Shown one piece after another: positions 2,142 through 51,619 of a DNA stretch of 64,000 nucleotides. The number at the start of each line of letters is the position of its first letter. Position 1 is the stretch's first letter. The notes under the pieces are model-generated. The model did no database searches and was not told where the DNA came from. It saw nothing but the letters and a program-made list of their open reading frames with translations. The DNA lies in NCBI RefSeq assembly GCF_003790525.1, contig NZ_CP033635.1. One strand, given 5' to 3'. The position numbers and the translations under genes were made by a program. Source of the DNA: Escherichia coli (GTDB lineage Bacteria; Pseudomonadota; Gammaproteobacteria; Enterobacterales; Enterobacteriaceae).

Positions 2142-3437
2142 TTAATCGCTGTTTTTGGCAATTAAACGTTCCGGGATAACAAAACTGAAACGTGTACCTT
2201 TTCCTACTGTACTCTCAATATTCAGGCGACTTTCGTGATGATTCACCGCATGTTTCACGATCGCTAACCCTAATCCGCTACCACCGGTTTGCCGGGAACG
2301 CGCTTTATCAACGCGATAAAAACGCTCGGTCAGGCGCGGAATATGCTCCGGTGCAATGCCCGGTCCGTTATCTTCAACGCTAAATTCGGCACCATGCGGC
2401 ACTCGCTGCCAGCGTACGGTGATATGCGTGCCTTCCGGCGTATGATTCACGGCGTTATAGACCAGGTTCGAAATCGCACTGCGTAGCTGATCTTCGCTGC
2501 CTGACACCTTGAGGCCGTTATCTATCTCAAAGGTAAATGTCTGTTTTTTCTGACTCAGAGTCTGAGCCTCGCGCTCAACAACGCGCAGCATCATCGGCAC
2601 ATCAACCTTTTCATTGAGCAACTGCGTCGGTGCGGCTTCTATTTTCGACAGCGTCAGCAATTGCTTCACCAGCCCTTCCATCCGCTGTGTCTGCTCGCGC
2701 ATGGTGTGCAACGCTTTTTCACGTACCGCGCCTTCCAGCGGTTGCTCATCCATCATCTCCAGGTAACCCTGTAACACGGTCAATGGCGTACGTAACTCAT
2801 GGCTCACGTTGGCAAAAAAGTTACGCCGCGCCCCTTCCAGTTGATGCATTTGCGTCACATCACGCGCCACCATCAGCAACTGTTTGTGGGTATAAGGCAT
2901 GACGCGAATTTCCAGATGCCGCCCGGTATTGAGCACCAGATTGAGCGGGCGAGAAAAATCACGCGTTTTCAGATATTGCGTAAACTCCGGATAACGAAGC
3001 AGATTAAGGATGTTCTGCCCGTTATCTTCCGGCCAGCGCAAACCAAGAATTTGTTGCGCCAGACCATTACACCAGAAAATACCGCCCTCTTCCGTGGTCA
3101 GCACCACCGCATCAGGCAGCGACTCCGCGCCGCTACGAAAGCGTTTAATCAGATTGCCCAGTTCGCGGCGGCGTTTTTTATTTCGCAACTGCATCTGGTG
3201 TAATCCGTATAGCAGCGGTTCCCAGCTACCACGCCCCGGTGGCGGGGTCATACTACGATCCACCCACAGCCACCATGAAAGGCGCAATAAATTCCAGAAA
3301 TGCCAGATAAGCAGTCCCGTTACCGATGCCAGCAAAAACCAGGGCAGGTAACCAAAAAATGCACCCAGGATGAAAGCCGGGAGGCAGCAAAGTAGCAGCT
3401 CCAGCACCAGCCTTTTCCACGACAGCCGTTCCAGCAC
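2142..3437 (-). CDS. phoR: Phosphate regulon sensor histidine kinase PhoR
   Basis: 431-aa ORF with N-terminal TM segment, H-box ([11 protein letters not shown]) and C-terminal ATPase motifs ([17 protein letters not shown]); directly downstream of phoB. Confidence 0.95.
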
Positions 3438-3494: not shown

Positions 3495-4184
3495 TTAAAA
3501 GCGGGTTGAAAAACGATATCCTGTACCGCGCACGGTCTGCACCATGCGGTCATGCCCGCCGGGCTCCAGTGCTTTACGCAGGCGACGAATGTGGACATCG
3601 ACCGTACGATCTTCCACATACACGTTGGTTCCCCAGACGTGGTTTAACAGCTGCTCGCGGCTGTACACGCGCTCAGGATGCGTCATAAAAAAGTGCAGCA
3701 GTTTAAATTCTGTCGGCCCCATCTCCAGCGGTTCTTCGCCCGCCATCACCCGGTGAGATGTCGGGTCGAGACTGAGCCCCTGCATCTCAATCACCTCTTC
3801 CACCGCCATTGGCGAAATACGGCGCATTACCGCTTTGATTCGCGCCACCAGCTCCTTCGGCGAAAACGGCTTGGTGATATAGTCATCCGCACCGGTTTCA
3901 AGGCCGCGCACGCGATCTTCTTCTTCCCCTCTGGCGGTCAACATCACCACTGGAATATCCCGGGTCATCGACTCGCGCTTGAGGTGTTTGATGAACTGGA
4001 TACCGGAGCCGCCAGGTAACATCCAGTCAAGGAGAATTAAATCCGGCCAGGGTTCATTCAGTTGATTCACAGCACTGTCATAATCTTCCGCTTCGACCGG
4101 CTGAAAGCCATTTTGTTCGAGCACGAAGCAGACCATTTCGCGAATTGGTGCTTCATCTTCTACGACCAGAATACGTCTCGCCAT
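3495..4184 (-). CDS. phoB: Phosphate regulon response regulator PhoB
   Basis: 229-aa [32 protein letters not shown]..., OmpR/PhoB-family receiver plus winged-helix domain. Confidence 0.97.
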
Positions 4185-4230: not shown

Positions 4231-4266
4231 CATTATGCGTCAGATTTATGACAGATTTATGAAAAG
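4231..4266 (-). promoter_or_regulatory. Pho box (tandem PhoB sites) in the phoB promoter
   Basis: Minus-strand reading cttttcataaatctgtcataaatctgacgcataatg contains CTGTCATAAATCTG-type direct repeats upstream of phoB. Confidence 0.75.
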
Positions 4267-16396: not shown

Positions 16397-17512
16397 TCAG
16401 GCCGCCACTTCGGTGCGGTTACGTCCGGCTTTCTTTGCTTTGTAAAGCGCCAAATCTGCCGATTTCAACCACTCACGATAGTGACTCATTTGTGGGTTCA
16501 GCGGCGCAACCCCCACACTAATCCGTAAAGTTACCTGTGGCGTATTCGGCAGACGTAATGTATTTAGCCCTTCATGCACTCGTAACATGGCGGTAATGGC
16601 GCTCTCAGCTGGCGTACCGGACATGATTACCGCAAACTCATCGCCGCCAAACCGACCAATCACATCGCTACCGCGCAGGGTTATTTGTAACTGTCGGGTA
16701 AGCGCCACAATCGCTTCATCGCCCACATCATGGCCCCAGGTATCGTTGATGCTCTTGAAATGGTCGATATCGATAATCAGTAATGTCGCATCGCGGTTAT
16801 GCCGCCGACAGTTATCAAATTCATTGCGTAACATAGTTTCCCAATGACGTCGGTTATACACGCCCGTCATACCGTCGCGGGTACTCATGACCTGCAACCT
16901 GCGTTTGTGTTCCGCCAGTTTAGTCGCCGTCTGGTAGCTGACCCAGCCAAACAGCAGAGGATAAATGACGATAATGGGAAGGGAGAGCCACCATTCCAGC
17001 GGCGCACTATTGAACGACACGGTGATGCCCGTCAGTTCGAGGGTGACAAGGCAGGAAACCACCATCAACACCAGACCCGCGACAAACAGACGGGGGCCGC
17101 CTGCCCCCATCAAATTCAGACACATAATCATCAACATCGCGGTGGAAGGCAGCACGTTTACGCCCATTACGCCTACCCACATTCCCGCTAATACTGCATC
17201 GGTTTTTAAGTTGTAAATTTCCCGGCTAAGCGGATCGACGGCCCTGCTCGCTATCTGCCAGGCTAAATGCGGCCAGACGAACGCCCAGCCGACCAACACC
17301 AGCCACCACCAGCCCGGCGGCGGGTGCGAAACCAGCGTTGAAGCAATCGGTAAGAACATGCCAGCCAGGCCAACCGCGCGGGGTAGTCTGACGCGACGAG
17401 CGAAGCGCAGCCCGGATCGCTGATGTTCGTTTTGAGGAGTTAAAGGAGGTTCCTCCCCATGCGCCGCCGCTTTTTTGAAAAAGTTTTCATCATTCATTAT
17501 TTTTGGGAACAT
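16397..17512 (-). CDS. dgcC: Diguanylate cyclase DgcC (AdrA/YaiC), MASE2 membrane domain + GGDEF
   Basis: 371-aa ORF with N-terminal TM helices and C-terminal GGDEF domain (RFGGDEF present). Confidence 0.9.
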   Translation of the reverse strand: MFPKIMNDENFFKKAAAHGEEPPLTPQNEHQRSGLRFARRVRLPRAVGLAGMFLPIASTLVSHPPPGWWWLVLVGWAFVWPHLAWQIASRAVDPLSREIYNLKTDAVLAGMWVGVMGVNVLPSTAMLMIMCLNLMGAGGPRLFVAGLVLMVVSCLVTLELTGITVSFNSAPLEWWLSLPIIVIYPLLFGWVSYQTATKLAEHKRRLQVMSTRDGMTGVYNRRHWETMLRNEFDNCRRHNRDATLLIIDIDHFKSINDTWGHDVGDEAIVALTRQLQITLRGSDVIGRFGGDEFAVIMSGTPAESAITAMLRVHEGLNTLRLPNTPQVTLRISVGVAPLNPQMSHYREWLKSADLALYKAKKAGRNRTEVAA

Positions 17513-17613
17513 TCAGAAACAATTTTCCCAAATTATAGAGACGGGGCTAAAGGCAGAAGTATGAAATTTCGGGTGAGCCATTTTCGTAGCTCACCCGTTA
17601 GCACTATCAGGTA

Positions 17614-17934
17614 TCAGGCGGCTTTCTTGAGGCAGGCGCTCATAAACTTATTACGATCATCACCTTTCAGAGATTGTTGCGTTGCTTGATTATTACATTC
17701 GCGCATCTTTTGCTGCTGTGGCGTCAAACTTTTTTCACCAGGCGCAGACTTGCTGTTCTTCAGGCAATCACTCATGTAGGTCTTACGAGCATCCCCTTTC
17801 AACGCCTGCGCCGTCGCCTGCTGATTACAGGAGGTCATACGCTGTTGTTGCGGGGTTAAGGTTCTCTCGGCAGCGCCGACGGTGGTTAAAAAAACCAGTC
17901 CGAAAAGCAAGGTAACCAGTAATGTTATTTTCAT
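17614..17934 (-). CDS. psiF: Phosphate starvation-inducible protein PsiF
   Basis: ORF 17614-17952; start placed at MKITLLVTLLFGLVFLTTVGA (signal peptide); two repeated MxxCNxQA..KGDxRxxxMSxCLK modules; downstream of phoA. Confidence 0.85.
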   Translation of the reverse strand: MKITLLVTLLFGLVFLTTVGAAERTLTPQQQRMTSCNQQATAQALKGDARKTYMSDCLKNSKSAPGEKSLTPQQQKMRECNNQATQQSLKGDDRNKFMSACLKKAA

Positions 17935-18009
17935 AGCACCATCCCTCTTCATGTTTTAACCATGAGCGTTTGCGCCCGTGATCTGCCATTAAGTCTGGTT
18001 GCTAACAGC

Positions 18010-18046
18010 AAAAAAACCACCCGACAGCGAAAATTCACCGCCGGGC
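18010..18046 (-). terminator. Rho-independent terminator after phoA
   Basis: Minus-strand hairpin (cccggcgg ... ctgtcggg, with G-U wobbles) followed by a T-run (plus-strand aaaaaaa at 18010-18016). Confidence 0.6.
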
Positions 18047-18052
18047 GCGGTT

Positions 18053-19468
18053 TTATTTCAGCCCCAGGGCGGCTTTCATGGTGTAGAAGAGATCGGTCTG
18101 GTCGGTCAGTCCAACGACATTGGCGGCATGTGGGCCATACGCTGCAATACGCAACTGACTGCCGGTATGTTCTTGTGAATCCTCTTCGGAGTTCCCGTAA
18201 CTCATCACCATCACTGCGCCATCTTTGGTATTTAGCGCCTGGGTGAGGCCCGGCGCTTTGGTGTCCGGCGCGACAATCTGGCTGGCGTGGGCGTGATCAG
18301 CGGTGACTATGACCAGCGTGTTGCCATCCTTTTTAGCGAATTCCAGCGCACGTTGTACGGCTTCATCGAGATCGACCGTCTCGCCAATTTGCCCACAAGG
18401 ATTCGCAGCGTGATCCTGTTTATCGATTGATGCACCTTCAACTTGCAGGAAAAAGCCTTTCTCATTTTTACTCAACAATTCAATGGCTTTGTCGGTCATC
18501 TGCGCCAGGGTCGGTACGCTGTCATTACGTTGCGGATTAGGCGTACAGGTAACTGCGGGCTTGTCGATATTGCCGTGGTACGTTGCTTTCGGTCCTAGCC
18601 AGCGCACTGGCATATTGCCGTCAGCAAACAGTCCTAATAGGGGTTTTTGCTGATTCGCTTCCGTCACCGAATTCAGTGAGGCAGCATCACTCACCAACTG
18701 ATAACCACGCGCCTGTGCCTGTTCACGCAGCGTTTTTCCCTGCCATTCACCGGCGGTTGCCGTTTCAGCAAAGGTTTTTGCGCCGCCGCCAAGCGTAACA
18801 TCGGCACGGGCGTTAAGCAGCTGTTCGGTAATCGATCCTTTTCCGCCTTTTTCCAGAGCGTTACCCGGACATTTTTCACTGGTCGCGCTCGGACCGTAGC
18901 ATTTGCGCGAGGTCACATGCGCCACCAGCGCAGCGGGCGTGGCATCCTGCAACTCTGCGGTAGAAACGTTACCGGTCGCCAGACCTGCGGCTTTTGCCAT
19001 TTCCAGAATCGTTGGGTGATCTTTTTCGTGAATATCGATGCCCAGCGCGCCGTTATAGGTTTTGACACCAGTTGACCAGGCGGTTGCTGATGCAGCCGAG
19101 TCGGTGACGTAGTCCGGTTTGCCGGTTTTTTTATTCAGCGCATAGTGAGTGTATTGCCCGGTAAGCGGTAAGGCATCGATACCTTTAAAAAAGCCGCCCG
19201 CACCTTCGGCATAATTGCGTGCGGCAGTAATTTCCGAGTCCCCCATCCCATCGCCAATCAGCAAAATAATATTTTTTGCAGGTTTATCGCTAAGAGAATC
19301 ACGCAGAGCGGCGGTCTGATCACCCGTTAAGCGGCGAGCACCGCCGGGCGCAGTAATATCGCCCTGAGCAGCCCGGTTTTCCAGAACAGGCATTTCTGGT
19401 GTCCGGGCTTTTGTCACAGGGGAAAACAGTAACGGTAAGAGTGCCAGTGCAATAGTGCTTTGTTTCAC
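18053..19468 (-). CDS. phoA: Alkaline phosphatase
   Basis: 471-aa ORF starting with GTG; [15 protein letters not shown] signal peptide; active-site region [12 protein letters not shown]. Confidence 0.97.
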
Positions 19469-19529
19469 TTTATTTTCTCCATGTACAAATACATTAAAAA
19501 TAAAAACAAAGCGACTATAAGTCTCGGCC

Positions 19530-19547
19530 GTGACAGCTTTATGACAG
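19530..19547 (-). promoter_or_regulatory. Pho box in the phoA promoter
   Basis: Minus-strand ctgtcataaagctgtcac (CTGTCAT direct repeats) upstream of phoA. Confidence 0.8.
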
Positions 19548-19567
19548 CTGTTGAAAAGATTAACTTT

Positions 19568-23353: not shown

Positions 23354-24574
23354 TTAGCTCAAGGTATGGGTTACTTCCTGAATTTTGTCACCATCCAGCT
23401 CATGTTCAAAGCTGCGCAGACGTTTGTAGATAGACATCAACTCAACCAGTGTGGTCCATGAGTTAATCAGGTACTGGAAAGCTCCGCGAACCTGACCAAA
23501 AACGTTGGTAATCTGCGTCATCAGGCCGAGCGTAATCGTACCGGCAACAATTGACGGAAACAGCAAGAACAAACCGAAAACGTTATCGACCTGCAAATAG
23601 AGAATGCGGGCGATGTTGAAATACATATAGTGAAAATAGAGGCGGAAATAGTTTTTCCGTACGGCGCTAAACAGCTCGCGTACCGTAGGCGGCGTCGCGC
23701 GCGTGGCATCGTCTTCACCATAAACCAGCTCTTTACGGTAGGCAGCCTCTACACGCTGGTTTTTAAACTCCAGCCCCGGCAGTTTGATCCCTACCACTGC
23801 CAGTAATCCGGTCCCCATCAGCGACCAGACGATAGCGGCAATCACCAGACCATACGGAATGTGCCCGACAATCGGCAGCTCCGGCACATGCGCGGAGAGC
23901 GTTACCAGCACCGGCAGGAAGGCGATCAACGTCATGATAGCGTTGATAAAGCTGACGCCCATATTCTCCAGCGTTGAAGCAAAACGCATGGTGTCTTCCT
24001 GCACACGCTGTGCGGCACCTTCGATATGACGCAGTTGTTGCCAGTTCGCCATGTAATATTCGTTCATCGCCGTACGCCAGCGGAACACGTAGTGACTGAC
24101 AAAGAAGTTGTTCAGCACACTGATCACCACCGCGATCAGCGCAATCCCCAGAAAGACGCCAACTTCGCGGTAAAATTGTTCGATGGTGACTTTATGCGGC
24201 GAACTTAGCGCGGTTTGAATCAGATCATAGAACGGCGCATACCAGGCGTTGACGGCGACCCCGACTTCCACCAAAAACCAGGTGACGAAGATGATCAGTG
24301 CAGTACCGAGTATTGACCAGTATTGCCAACGATGCGGGCTGTAGATAAACCAGAACAATGCAAAAAGTCCTACGCAAACAATGTAGTAAGCGTAAAAAAT
24401 CAAGAAATCCAACGACCAGAAACGCGCGGCGCTAATCGGGATCTGCCCGGAAGCTCCGGTGATACGCGCCACCCAATCCCCCCCACCGGCTTGCCAGAAG
24501 ATAACGGCAATCAATGCCCAAACAAAGGCCGAGAGAAAAAACGGTCCCGGCTTTGGGAAAAAAGACTTAAACAT
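23354..24574 (-). CDS. sbmA: Peptide antibiotic/microcin transporter SbmA
   Basis: ORF 23354-24580; start placed at [22 protein letters not shown]...; polytopic membrane protein, 406 aa. Confidence 0.92.
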
Positions 24575-26780: not shown

Positions 26781-29702
<2,922 letters not shown>

Positions 29703-50536: not shown

Positions 50537-51619
50537 GTGAAACCAGTAACGCTATACGATGTCGCAGAGTATGCCGGTGTCTCTTATCAGACCGTTTCCC
50601 GCGTGGTGAACCAGGCCAGCCACGTTTCTGCGAAAACGCGGGAAAAAGTGGAAGCGGCGATGGCGGAGCTGAATTACATTCCCAACCGCGTGGCACAACA
50701 ACTGGCAGGCAAACAGTCGTTGCTGATTGGCGTTGCCACCTCCAGTCTGGCCCTGCACGCGCCGTCGCAAATTGTCGCCGCGATTAAATCTCGCGCCGAT
50801 CAACTGGGTGCCAGCGTGGTGGTGTCGATGGTAGAACGAAGCGGCGTCGAAGCCTGTAAAGCGGCGGTACACAATCTCCTCGCGCAACGCGTCAGTGGGC
50901 TGATCATTAACTATCCGCTGGATGACCAGGATGCCATTGCTGTGGAAGCTGCCTGCGCTAATGTTCCGGCTTTATTTCTTGATGTCTCTGACCAGACACC
51001 CATCAACAGTATTATTTTCTCCCATGAAGACGGTACGCGACTGGGCGTGGAGCATCTGGTCGCATTGGGTCACCAGCAAATCGCGCTGTTAGCGGGTCCA
51101 TTAAGTTCTGTCTCGGCACGTCTGCGTCTGGCGGGCTGGCATAAATATCTCACTCGCAATCAAATTCAGCCGATAGCGGAACGGGAAGGCGACTGGAGTG
51201 CCATGTCCGGTTTTCAACAAACCATGCAAATGCTGAATGAGGACATCGTTCCTACTGCGATGCTGGTTGCCAACGATCAGATGGCGCTGGGCGCAATGCG
51301 CGCCATTACCGAGTCCGGGCTGCGCGTTGGTGCGGATGTCTCGGTAGTGGGATACGACGATACCGAAGACAGCTCGTGTTATATCCCGCCGTTAACCACC
51401 ATCAAACAGGATTTTCGCCTGCTGGGGCAAACCAGCGTGGACCGCTTGCTGCAACTCTCTCAGGGCCAGGCGGTGAAGGGCAATCAGCTGTTGCCCGTCT
51501 CACTGGTGAAAAGAAAAACCACCCTTCCGCCCAATACGCAAACCGCCTCTCCCCGCGCGTTGGCAGATTCTTTAATGCAGCTGGCACGACAAGTTTCCCG
51601 ACTGGAAAGCGGGCAGTGA
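50537..51619 (+). CDS. lacI: Lactose operon repressor LacI
   Basis: GTG start at 50537 (gtgaaaccagtaacg...), VKPVTLYDVAEYAGVSYQTVSRVVNQ... helix-turn-helix; ends ...SRLESGQ; 360 aa. Confidence 0.97.
   Translation: MKPVTLYDVAEYAGVSYQTVSRVVNQASHVSAKTREKVEAAMAELNYIPNRVAQQLAGKQSLLIGVATSSLALHAPSQIVAAIKSRADQLGASVVVSMVERSGVEACKAAVHNLLAQRVSGLIINYPLDDQDAIAVEAACANVPALFLDVSDQTPINSIIFSHEDGTRLGVEHLVALGHQQIALLAGPLSSVSARLRLAGWHKYLTRNQIQPIAEREGDWSAMSGFQQTMQMLNEDIVPTAMLVANDQMALGAMRAITESGLRVGADVSVVGYDDTEDSSCYIPPLTTIKQDFRLLGQTSVDRLLQLSQGQAVKGNQLLPVSLVKRKTTLPPNTQTASPRALADSLMQLARQVSRLESGQ

Follow-up and report, generated by a model that had tools for sequence, protein, structure and literature searches.

The window, i.e., the whole 64-kb stretch of Escherichia coli DNA analysed here, contains between nt 17400 and 19800 a segment that is 100% identical in E. 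coli SMS-3-5 and in some two dozen further complete genomes, and in which the RefSeq gene order is iraP, phoA, psiF and adrA (dgcC), all on the minus strand. The genes listed in the initial annotation, as well as the spacing of 118 bp between phoA and psiF, were borne out by the ORF list, the RefSeq annotation and Pfam, and are arranged as follows:

18053–19468, minus strand: phoA, coding for alkaline phosphatase (471 aa, GTG start; ORF list, RefSeq annotation and Pfam Alk_phosphatase)
17935–18052, minus strand: phoA–psiF spacer, 118 bp
17614–17934, minus strand: psiF, 106 aa from the annotated ATG, with two PsiF repeats (Pfam PsiF_repeat)
3495–4184, minus strand: phoB, response regulator (Pfam Response_reg, receiver, and Trans_reg_C)
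about 2142–3437, minus strand: phoR, 3' of phoB

An upstream in-frame ATG for psiF is present at nt 17952, a start that is not conserved in other genera. The locus corresponds to the known phoA–psiF operon and to the known phoBR promoter, and is in this respect already known biology; this strain thus has an intact copy of a textbook Pho-regulon locus. When the whole window was compared with SMS-3-5, the two sequences were collinear except for one SNP (nt 24161, the sole base difference within the first 29 kb of the window) and for a 1336-bp IS3 insertion lacking in the window. An intact ORF of 969 aa, with an autotransporter beta-domain (Pfam Autotransporter), occupies nt 26793–29702 (minus strand) of the window, and its counterpart in SMS-3-5 is split by the 1336-bp IS3 (junction at nt 29016–29021) and annotated as two pseudogene fragments.

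Pho boxes were searched over the 64-kb window using the 18-bp consensus CTGTCATAWAWCTGTCAY and admitting up to three mismatches, which retrieved four matches against 0.14 expected by chance. Both Pho boxes already recognised in the initial annotation were recovered by the scan, and the promoter features are the following:

19530–19547, minus strand: phoA Pho box CTGTCATAAAGCTGTCAC (CTGTCAT-AAAG-CTGTCAC), one mismatch to the consensus
19514–19519, minus strand: phoA −10 hexamer TATAGT, read from the sequence, 10 nt downstream of the Pho box
4231–4266, minus strand: phoB Pho box region TTTTCATAAATCTGTCATAAATCTGACGCATAATGA, with two overlapping scan matches at nt 4237–4265, two mismatches each

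A further match (nt 51136–51153, three mismatches), far from the phoA and phoB promoters, was taken as a chance occurrence. The architecture is that of a Pho box, with two 7-bp repeats close to CTGTCAT, a 4-bp A/T-rich spacer and 11-bp phasing. In the phoA promoter the box is found in the −35 place, as it ends at nt 19530 and is separated by a gap of 10 nt from TATAGT (nt 19519–19514), which we take to be the −10 element on the basis of the established knowledge of the K-12 phoA promoter. The repeats in the phoB box are TTTTCAT, CTGTCAT and CTGACGC, with an exact CTGTCAT in only one of the three.

Compared with K-12 phoA–psiF (b0383–b0384), which is PhoB-activated, the window has the same genes, gene order, 118-bp spacer, promoter architecture and terminator fold, with five small differences in the non-coding parts compared (nt 19536, the leader T-run, nt 18039, nt 18024 and about nt 17970). 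The first is a T-to-C change in the phoA box (K-12 GTTGTCAC, window GCTGTCAC) which, at the sequence level, brings the second half-site (CTGTCAC) closer to the consensus; as an exact 57-mer, this variant was found in 562 of 5307 E. coli records (~10%), thus representing a minority allele. The T-run of the phoA leader (nt 19495–19499) is one nucleotide shorter than in K-12, and the spacer SNP at about nt 17970 is A in the window and T in K-12. No differences were found in the phoBR promoter Pho box, the sbcD–phoB spacer being identical to K-12 over its whole length, and the phoB box matches the PhoB site reported at K-12 position 417093, TTTCATAAATCTGTCATA, by ChIP-seq (PMC10294691). For the K-12 alleles, PhoB binding and PhoB-dependent transcription in vivo are described by the ChIP-seq and RNA-seq data of the same study (PMC10294691).

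Between phoA and psiF, the initial annotation had pointed out a hairpin with wobble pairs in its stem. Folding of the spacer bears this out and places the hairpin within an intrinsic terminator:

18010–18054, minus strand: intrinsic terminator after the phoA stop codon, G+C-rich hairpin followed by U7; sequence AAAACCGCGCCCGGCGGTGAATTTTCGCTGTCGGGTGGTTTTTTT

The hairpin (nt 18054–18013) comprises 6 + 12 bp, a bulge of 2 nt and a loop of 4 nt. In the core stem nt 18046–18035 pair with nt 18030–18019, and in the outer one nt 18054–18049 pair with nt 18018–18013, the U7 run (nt 18016–18010) being located immediately 3' of the hairpin stem and an A-tract upstream. A minimum free energy of −25.1 kcal/mol was calculated (z = −5.3), with none of 200 shuffled sequences being as stable, and a simple terminator scan independently flagged the same hairpin. 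A termination score of the d'Aubenton-Carafa type was also computed; it is indicative only, with no conclusion resting on it.

Two checks suggested in the initial annotation, namely alignment of the hairpin with the K-12 allele and comparison of the free energies, both revealed a difference. Exactly two stem positions differ from MG1655, nt 18039 (G in the window, A in K-12) and nt 18024 (T in the window, C in K-12), so that G·U replaces A-U in one pair and G-C in the other. Four G·U pairs are therefore present in the window hairpin, two of them common to K-12 and two allele-specific. An identical dot-bracket structure is obtained for the K-12 hairpin, with an energy of −28.5 kcal/mol, a difference of +3.4 kcal/mol for the window form, and the two single-change intermediates are at −27.8 and −25.8 kcal/mol. 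With the A/U pairs left out, as these cannot form when termination takes place, the energies were −23.0 kcal/mol for the window and −26.4 kcal/mol for K-12. Neither the G+C-rich stem base nor the U7 tract changes between the two alleles.

Stable 3' hairpins can protect mRNAs from exonucleases, a function able to coexist with termination, and the phoA hairpin might accordingly serve chiefly to stabilise the RNA, or be a REP-like repeat, instead of a terminator. We regard this as highly improbable in view of the full terminator anatomy (G+C-rich stem, immediate U7 and upstream A-tract) and of the conservation across genera of the GGGTGG(T)6–7 arm and tail. A REP/BIME repeat was rejected because the hairpin sequence is single-copy: unlike dispersed REP elements, the hairpin 57-mer has a median of one occurrence per genome, invariably at phoA. 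An Rfam scan of the whole 64-kb window at gathering thresholds did not retrieve any match.

To evaluate the distribution of the hairpin alleles, 5,426 complete E. coli genomes, among which clinical isolates are over-represented, were searched with a 57-mer spanning the hairpin, and only exact matches were counted. The window allele was found in 1338 records (about 25%), including E. coli B laboratory strains such as BL21 and REL606, and the K-12 allele in 3348 (about 62%); ATCC 25922 carries the exact 81-mer of the window allele. Both single-change intermediates exist in nature, A..T in 118UI and CB8671 and G..C in N96. Other variants include a change in the bulge in O157:H7, a U-to-C substitution turning one of the old G·U pairs into G-C, and one further G·U. 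All the sampled E. coli variants keep the pairing and the same fold, with energies from −22.3 to −28.5 kcal/mol. Strains with a K-12-type hairpin (K-12, O157, UTI89 and O104) and with a window-type hairpin (E. coli B, ATCC 25922 and SMS-3-5) are usually assigned to different phylogroups.

The core stem of the window, GGCGGTG...CGCTGTCGGG, is also present in E. albertii and in Escherichia sp. MOD1-EC7003, and among the non-coli Escherichia lineages G is found at the first polymorphic site in five of six and a G·U pair at the second in five of six. Since the window allele matches the Escherichia outgroups, by parsimony it is probably the ancestral form of the hairpin, with the K-12 form being derived through two changes, each of them apparently "repairing" a wobble pair. 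The initial annotation had considered that the terminator might be partially weakened: the allele does differ from K-12, but with its presence in about a quarter of genomes and in the outgroups, "weakened in the window allele" should rather be understood as "tightened in K-12", the K-12 hairpin being in this reading the strengthened form.

For comparison across species, one genome per species was scanned with PsiF, leading to 80 loci. In most of them phoA lies directly upstream of psiF, and in every spacer inspected a G+C-rich hairpin comes first and is followed by GGT(G)T6–7, the 3' arm and tail GGGTGG(T)6–7 being conserved across genera. In the alignment of 57 Enterobacteriaceae spacers, the six core pairs (the innermost conserved ones) are formed in 97–100% of the sequences, with many compensatory changes, and double-sided changes occur at 9 of the 18 stem pairs. 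The observed covariation score was not reached by any of 500 shuffles, pairing dropped from 77% to 33–55% in slid controls, and RNAalifold independently recovered the core stem. The two pairs polymorphic in E. coli are the most variable ones between genera (GC 32, GU 18 and AU 7 for one; GC 15, GU 14 and AU 12 for the other) and are always paired in the 57 spacers, so that G·U at these positions can be considered normal. As for stability, the window hairpin is above the median of the phoA terminators from 63 Enterobacteriaceae species and, at −23 to −25 kcal/mol, belongs to the more stable half of the phoA-positive loci; a few energy outliers among these loci derive from the automated choice of the T-run in long spacers.

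In about 15 species, including Salmonella, the E. cloacae complex, C. sedlakii and some Leclercia, phoA is missing and psiF adjoins iraP. The corresponding loci are the following:

L034, L043, L041, L045–L047, L051, L052, L070, L075, L079, L080, L085 and L095, upstream of position 2501: phoA-lost loci

In several of these species a relic Pho-box promoter is still found upstream of psiF, together with remnants of both ends of phoA. Where phoA is lost, the hairpin is truncated or has degenerated, with a median of −9.0 kcal/mol versus −20.7 kcal/mol (Mann-Whitney p = 2e-6, a value overstating the evidence because only about five or six independent phoA losses are represented). As the hairpin decays where phoA is lost, the cross-species data support a role in setting the phoA:psiF ratio, and the pattern fits a hairpin whose job would be to separate the expression levels of the two genes.

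Downstream of the terminator, the sequence preceding psiF contains the following elements:

17935–18009, minus strand: psiF leader, downstream of the terminator, comprising the block ACCAGACTTA and the Shine-Dalgarno region GAGGGATGGTGCT, with neither a Pho box nor a sigma-70-like match
17990–17999, minus strand: conserved block ACCAGACTTA between the terminator and the psiF ribosome binding site, ACCATCCTTA in some genera
17935–17947, minus strand: psiF Shine-Dalgarno region GAGGGATGGTGCT

For the expression of this gene, both the dependence on PhoB and the amount of psiF RNA relative to phoA were taken from the literature on K-12. In low phosphate, counts of about 310,000 for phoA and about 32,600 for psiF are reported in the wild type, and of about 1,550 and about 755, respectively, in a phoB deletion (PMC10294691, Table S1). 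These counts are DESeq2-normalised without length normalisation and refer to steady-state RNA. Calculated per nucleotide from the same table, the psiF/phoA ratio is about 0.46 in K-12 and the PhoB-dependent induction of psiF about 43-fold, and in the phoB deletion psiF stands at about 2.4 versus 1.1 for phoA. phoA–psiF is given as one operon in the K-12 PhoB regulon, and among the ChIP sites of that study examined here it has a single PhoB site, at position 401676, upstream of phoA (PMC10294691).

Consensus scans of the spacer (nt 17935–18052) found neither a Pho box with up to three mismatches nor a sigma-70-like site on the minus strand. psiF is thus co-directional with phoA, induced by PhoB and devoid of its own Pho box, as in a single transcription unit. 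With psiF at 0.46 of phoA in K-12 and no Pho box of its own, read-through must be regarded as normal and is substantial even with the tighter K-12 hairpin; it therefore does not depend on the window allele. A ratio of ≈0.46 is high for so stable a hairpin, and steady-state RNA mixes termination with decay. In K-12 Term-seq data from phosphate-replete media no 3' end is present at the phoA terminator (PMC7815308), because phoA is off in these conditions. In the literature, we found no low-phosphate Term-seq, no 3'-end or read-through measurement under phosphate limitation for either hairpin allele, no measurement of termination efficiency for phoA–psiF, and no BL21 phosphate-limitation dataset covering both psiF and phoA.

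Since psiF exceeds phoA per nucleotide in the phoB deletion, some PhoB-independent transcription reaches psiF, possibly from a weak promoter undetected by the consensus scan. This excess might be taken to indicate that most psiF transcription starts at a promoter of its own, located in the spacer or close to it, with the phoA terminator being essentially complete and the two genes co-regulated rather than connected by read-through; the persistence of psiF and of its conserved leader in species without phoA, as well as the conserved block ACCAGACTTA upstream of psiF, go in the same direction. Nonetheless, we consider this arrangement quite improbable, given that psiF is induced 43-fold by PhoB yet the spacer contains no Pho box or sigma-70-like site, and that none of the K-12 PhoB ChIP peaks examined lies near psiF (PMC10294691). 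In addition, the old phoA Pho-box promoter has been kept upstream of psiF in several species that lost phoA, which fits a dependence of psiF on the phoA promoter.

We favour, with a probability of about 0.85, the reading of the locus as a standard phoA–psiF unit in which the terminator would act as an internal attenuator, present in the window in a common variant of modest effect. Under phosphate limitation, phosphorylated PhoB would bind nt 19530–19547, in the −35 place, leading to transcription of phoA; the hairpin and U7 (nt 18010–18054) would terminate part of the phoA transcripts, and the remaining ones would cross the 118-bp spacer and continue into psiF. Partial termination, combined with read-through into a gene without its own Pho box, would therefore make the terminator an attenuator setting the phoA:psiF ratio. 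The anatomy, the allele difference and its frequency, the outgroup polarity and the covarying conservation of the hairpin were observed here; partial termination as the mechanism, and the small effect of the allele, are inferred.

Internal partial terminators setting gene ratios within operons are known from T1 of rpsU–dnaG–rpoD and from the rplL–rpoB attenuator. By analogy, phoA–psiF would have a terminator between co-directional genes served by one promoter, with the second gene expressed at only part of the level of the first. Unlike these systems, we know of no regulation of the read-through for phoA–psiF.

Free energy is a rough predictor of termination efficiency. Both changes are destabilising with respect to K-12, for a total of +3.4 kcal/mol, within a range of −22.3 to −28.5 kcal/mol spanned by natural variants, and one could suppose that termination is materially weakened by the two additional G·U pairs, the expression of psiF, and possibly of adrA, relative to phoA being then clearly higher than in K-12. 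This seems unlikely to us. The fold, the stem base beside the U tract and U7 are unchanged, the hairpin is still stronger than the 63-species median, and G·U occurs at the same pairs in 14–18 of 57 species; moreover, an allele found in ~25% of genomes and probably ancestral is therefore not a lesion, and read-through is already large in K-12 (PMC10294691). Of the "partially weakened" terminator of the initial annotation, what stands is the pair of additional G·U and their cost relative to K-12; for a hairpin of unchanged architecture and above-median strength, that description is too strong.

As the fold is retained at a predicted cost of 3.4 kcal/mol, a modest change in read-through is expected, and with G·U at two mid-stem pairs the window hairpin would increase it at most modestly. 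The terminator variant is real, common and structurally conservative, and only a small effect on termination is predicted for it. In the K-12 reference the phoA terminator is in its derived, tighter form, with about one quarter of genomes, including E. coli B, keeping the G·U form, and K-12 and B strains offer a natural comparison for the effect of two mid-stem wobble pairs on termination. The hairpin alleles might give a different stoichiometry of phoA and psiF, and of the downstream adrA, among strains.

Seven positions of the ACCAGACTTA block are invariant in all the 57 aligned spacers, and the block is kept in nearly all the phoA-lost species. Its sequence can pair with the psiF Shine-Dalgarno region (AGGGATGGT), and a helix ACCAGACTT/AGGGATGGT was predicted by folding in most species. 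RNAalifold did not select this helix. Both arms are conserved with zero compensatory change in the 57-spacer alignment, a pattern compatible with such a helix as well as with some other conserved signal. Judging from sequence conservation and complementarity, ACCAGACTTA could form an anti-Shine-Dalgarno helix or a binding site for a factor, controlling the translation of psiF independently of read-through. The candidate functions of the block are thus an anti-Shine-Dalgarno helix, a binding site or a promoter element; as a −10 hexamer or as a sigma-E −35 element it did not fit by eye. Taken together, an allele-dependent phoA:psiF stoichiometry and a translational control of psiF through ACCAGACTTA appear doubtful.

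A second hairpin lies beyond psiF:

17570–17597, minus strand: hairpin after psiF, −20.1 kcal/mol, without a good U tract

It marks the end of the operon. The psiF 3' end identified by Term-seq in K-12 (position 403649, about nt 17566 of the window; PMC7815308, supplementary file 1) coincides with this −20.1 kcal/mol structure. A low-count K-12 3' end is also reported on the opposite strand at position 403612 (about nt 17603 of the window, plus strand), antisense to the adrA/dgcC leader (PMC7815308), and a promoter-like site at nt 17475–17503 (plus strand) could feed it. Within phoA, K-12 Term-seq shows an ORF-internal 3' end 103 nt into the gene (K-12 position 401850, about nt 19365 of the window, minus strand), in a region that encodes the start of mature PhoA and contains the self-complementary sequence CCCGG...CCGGG.
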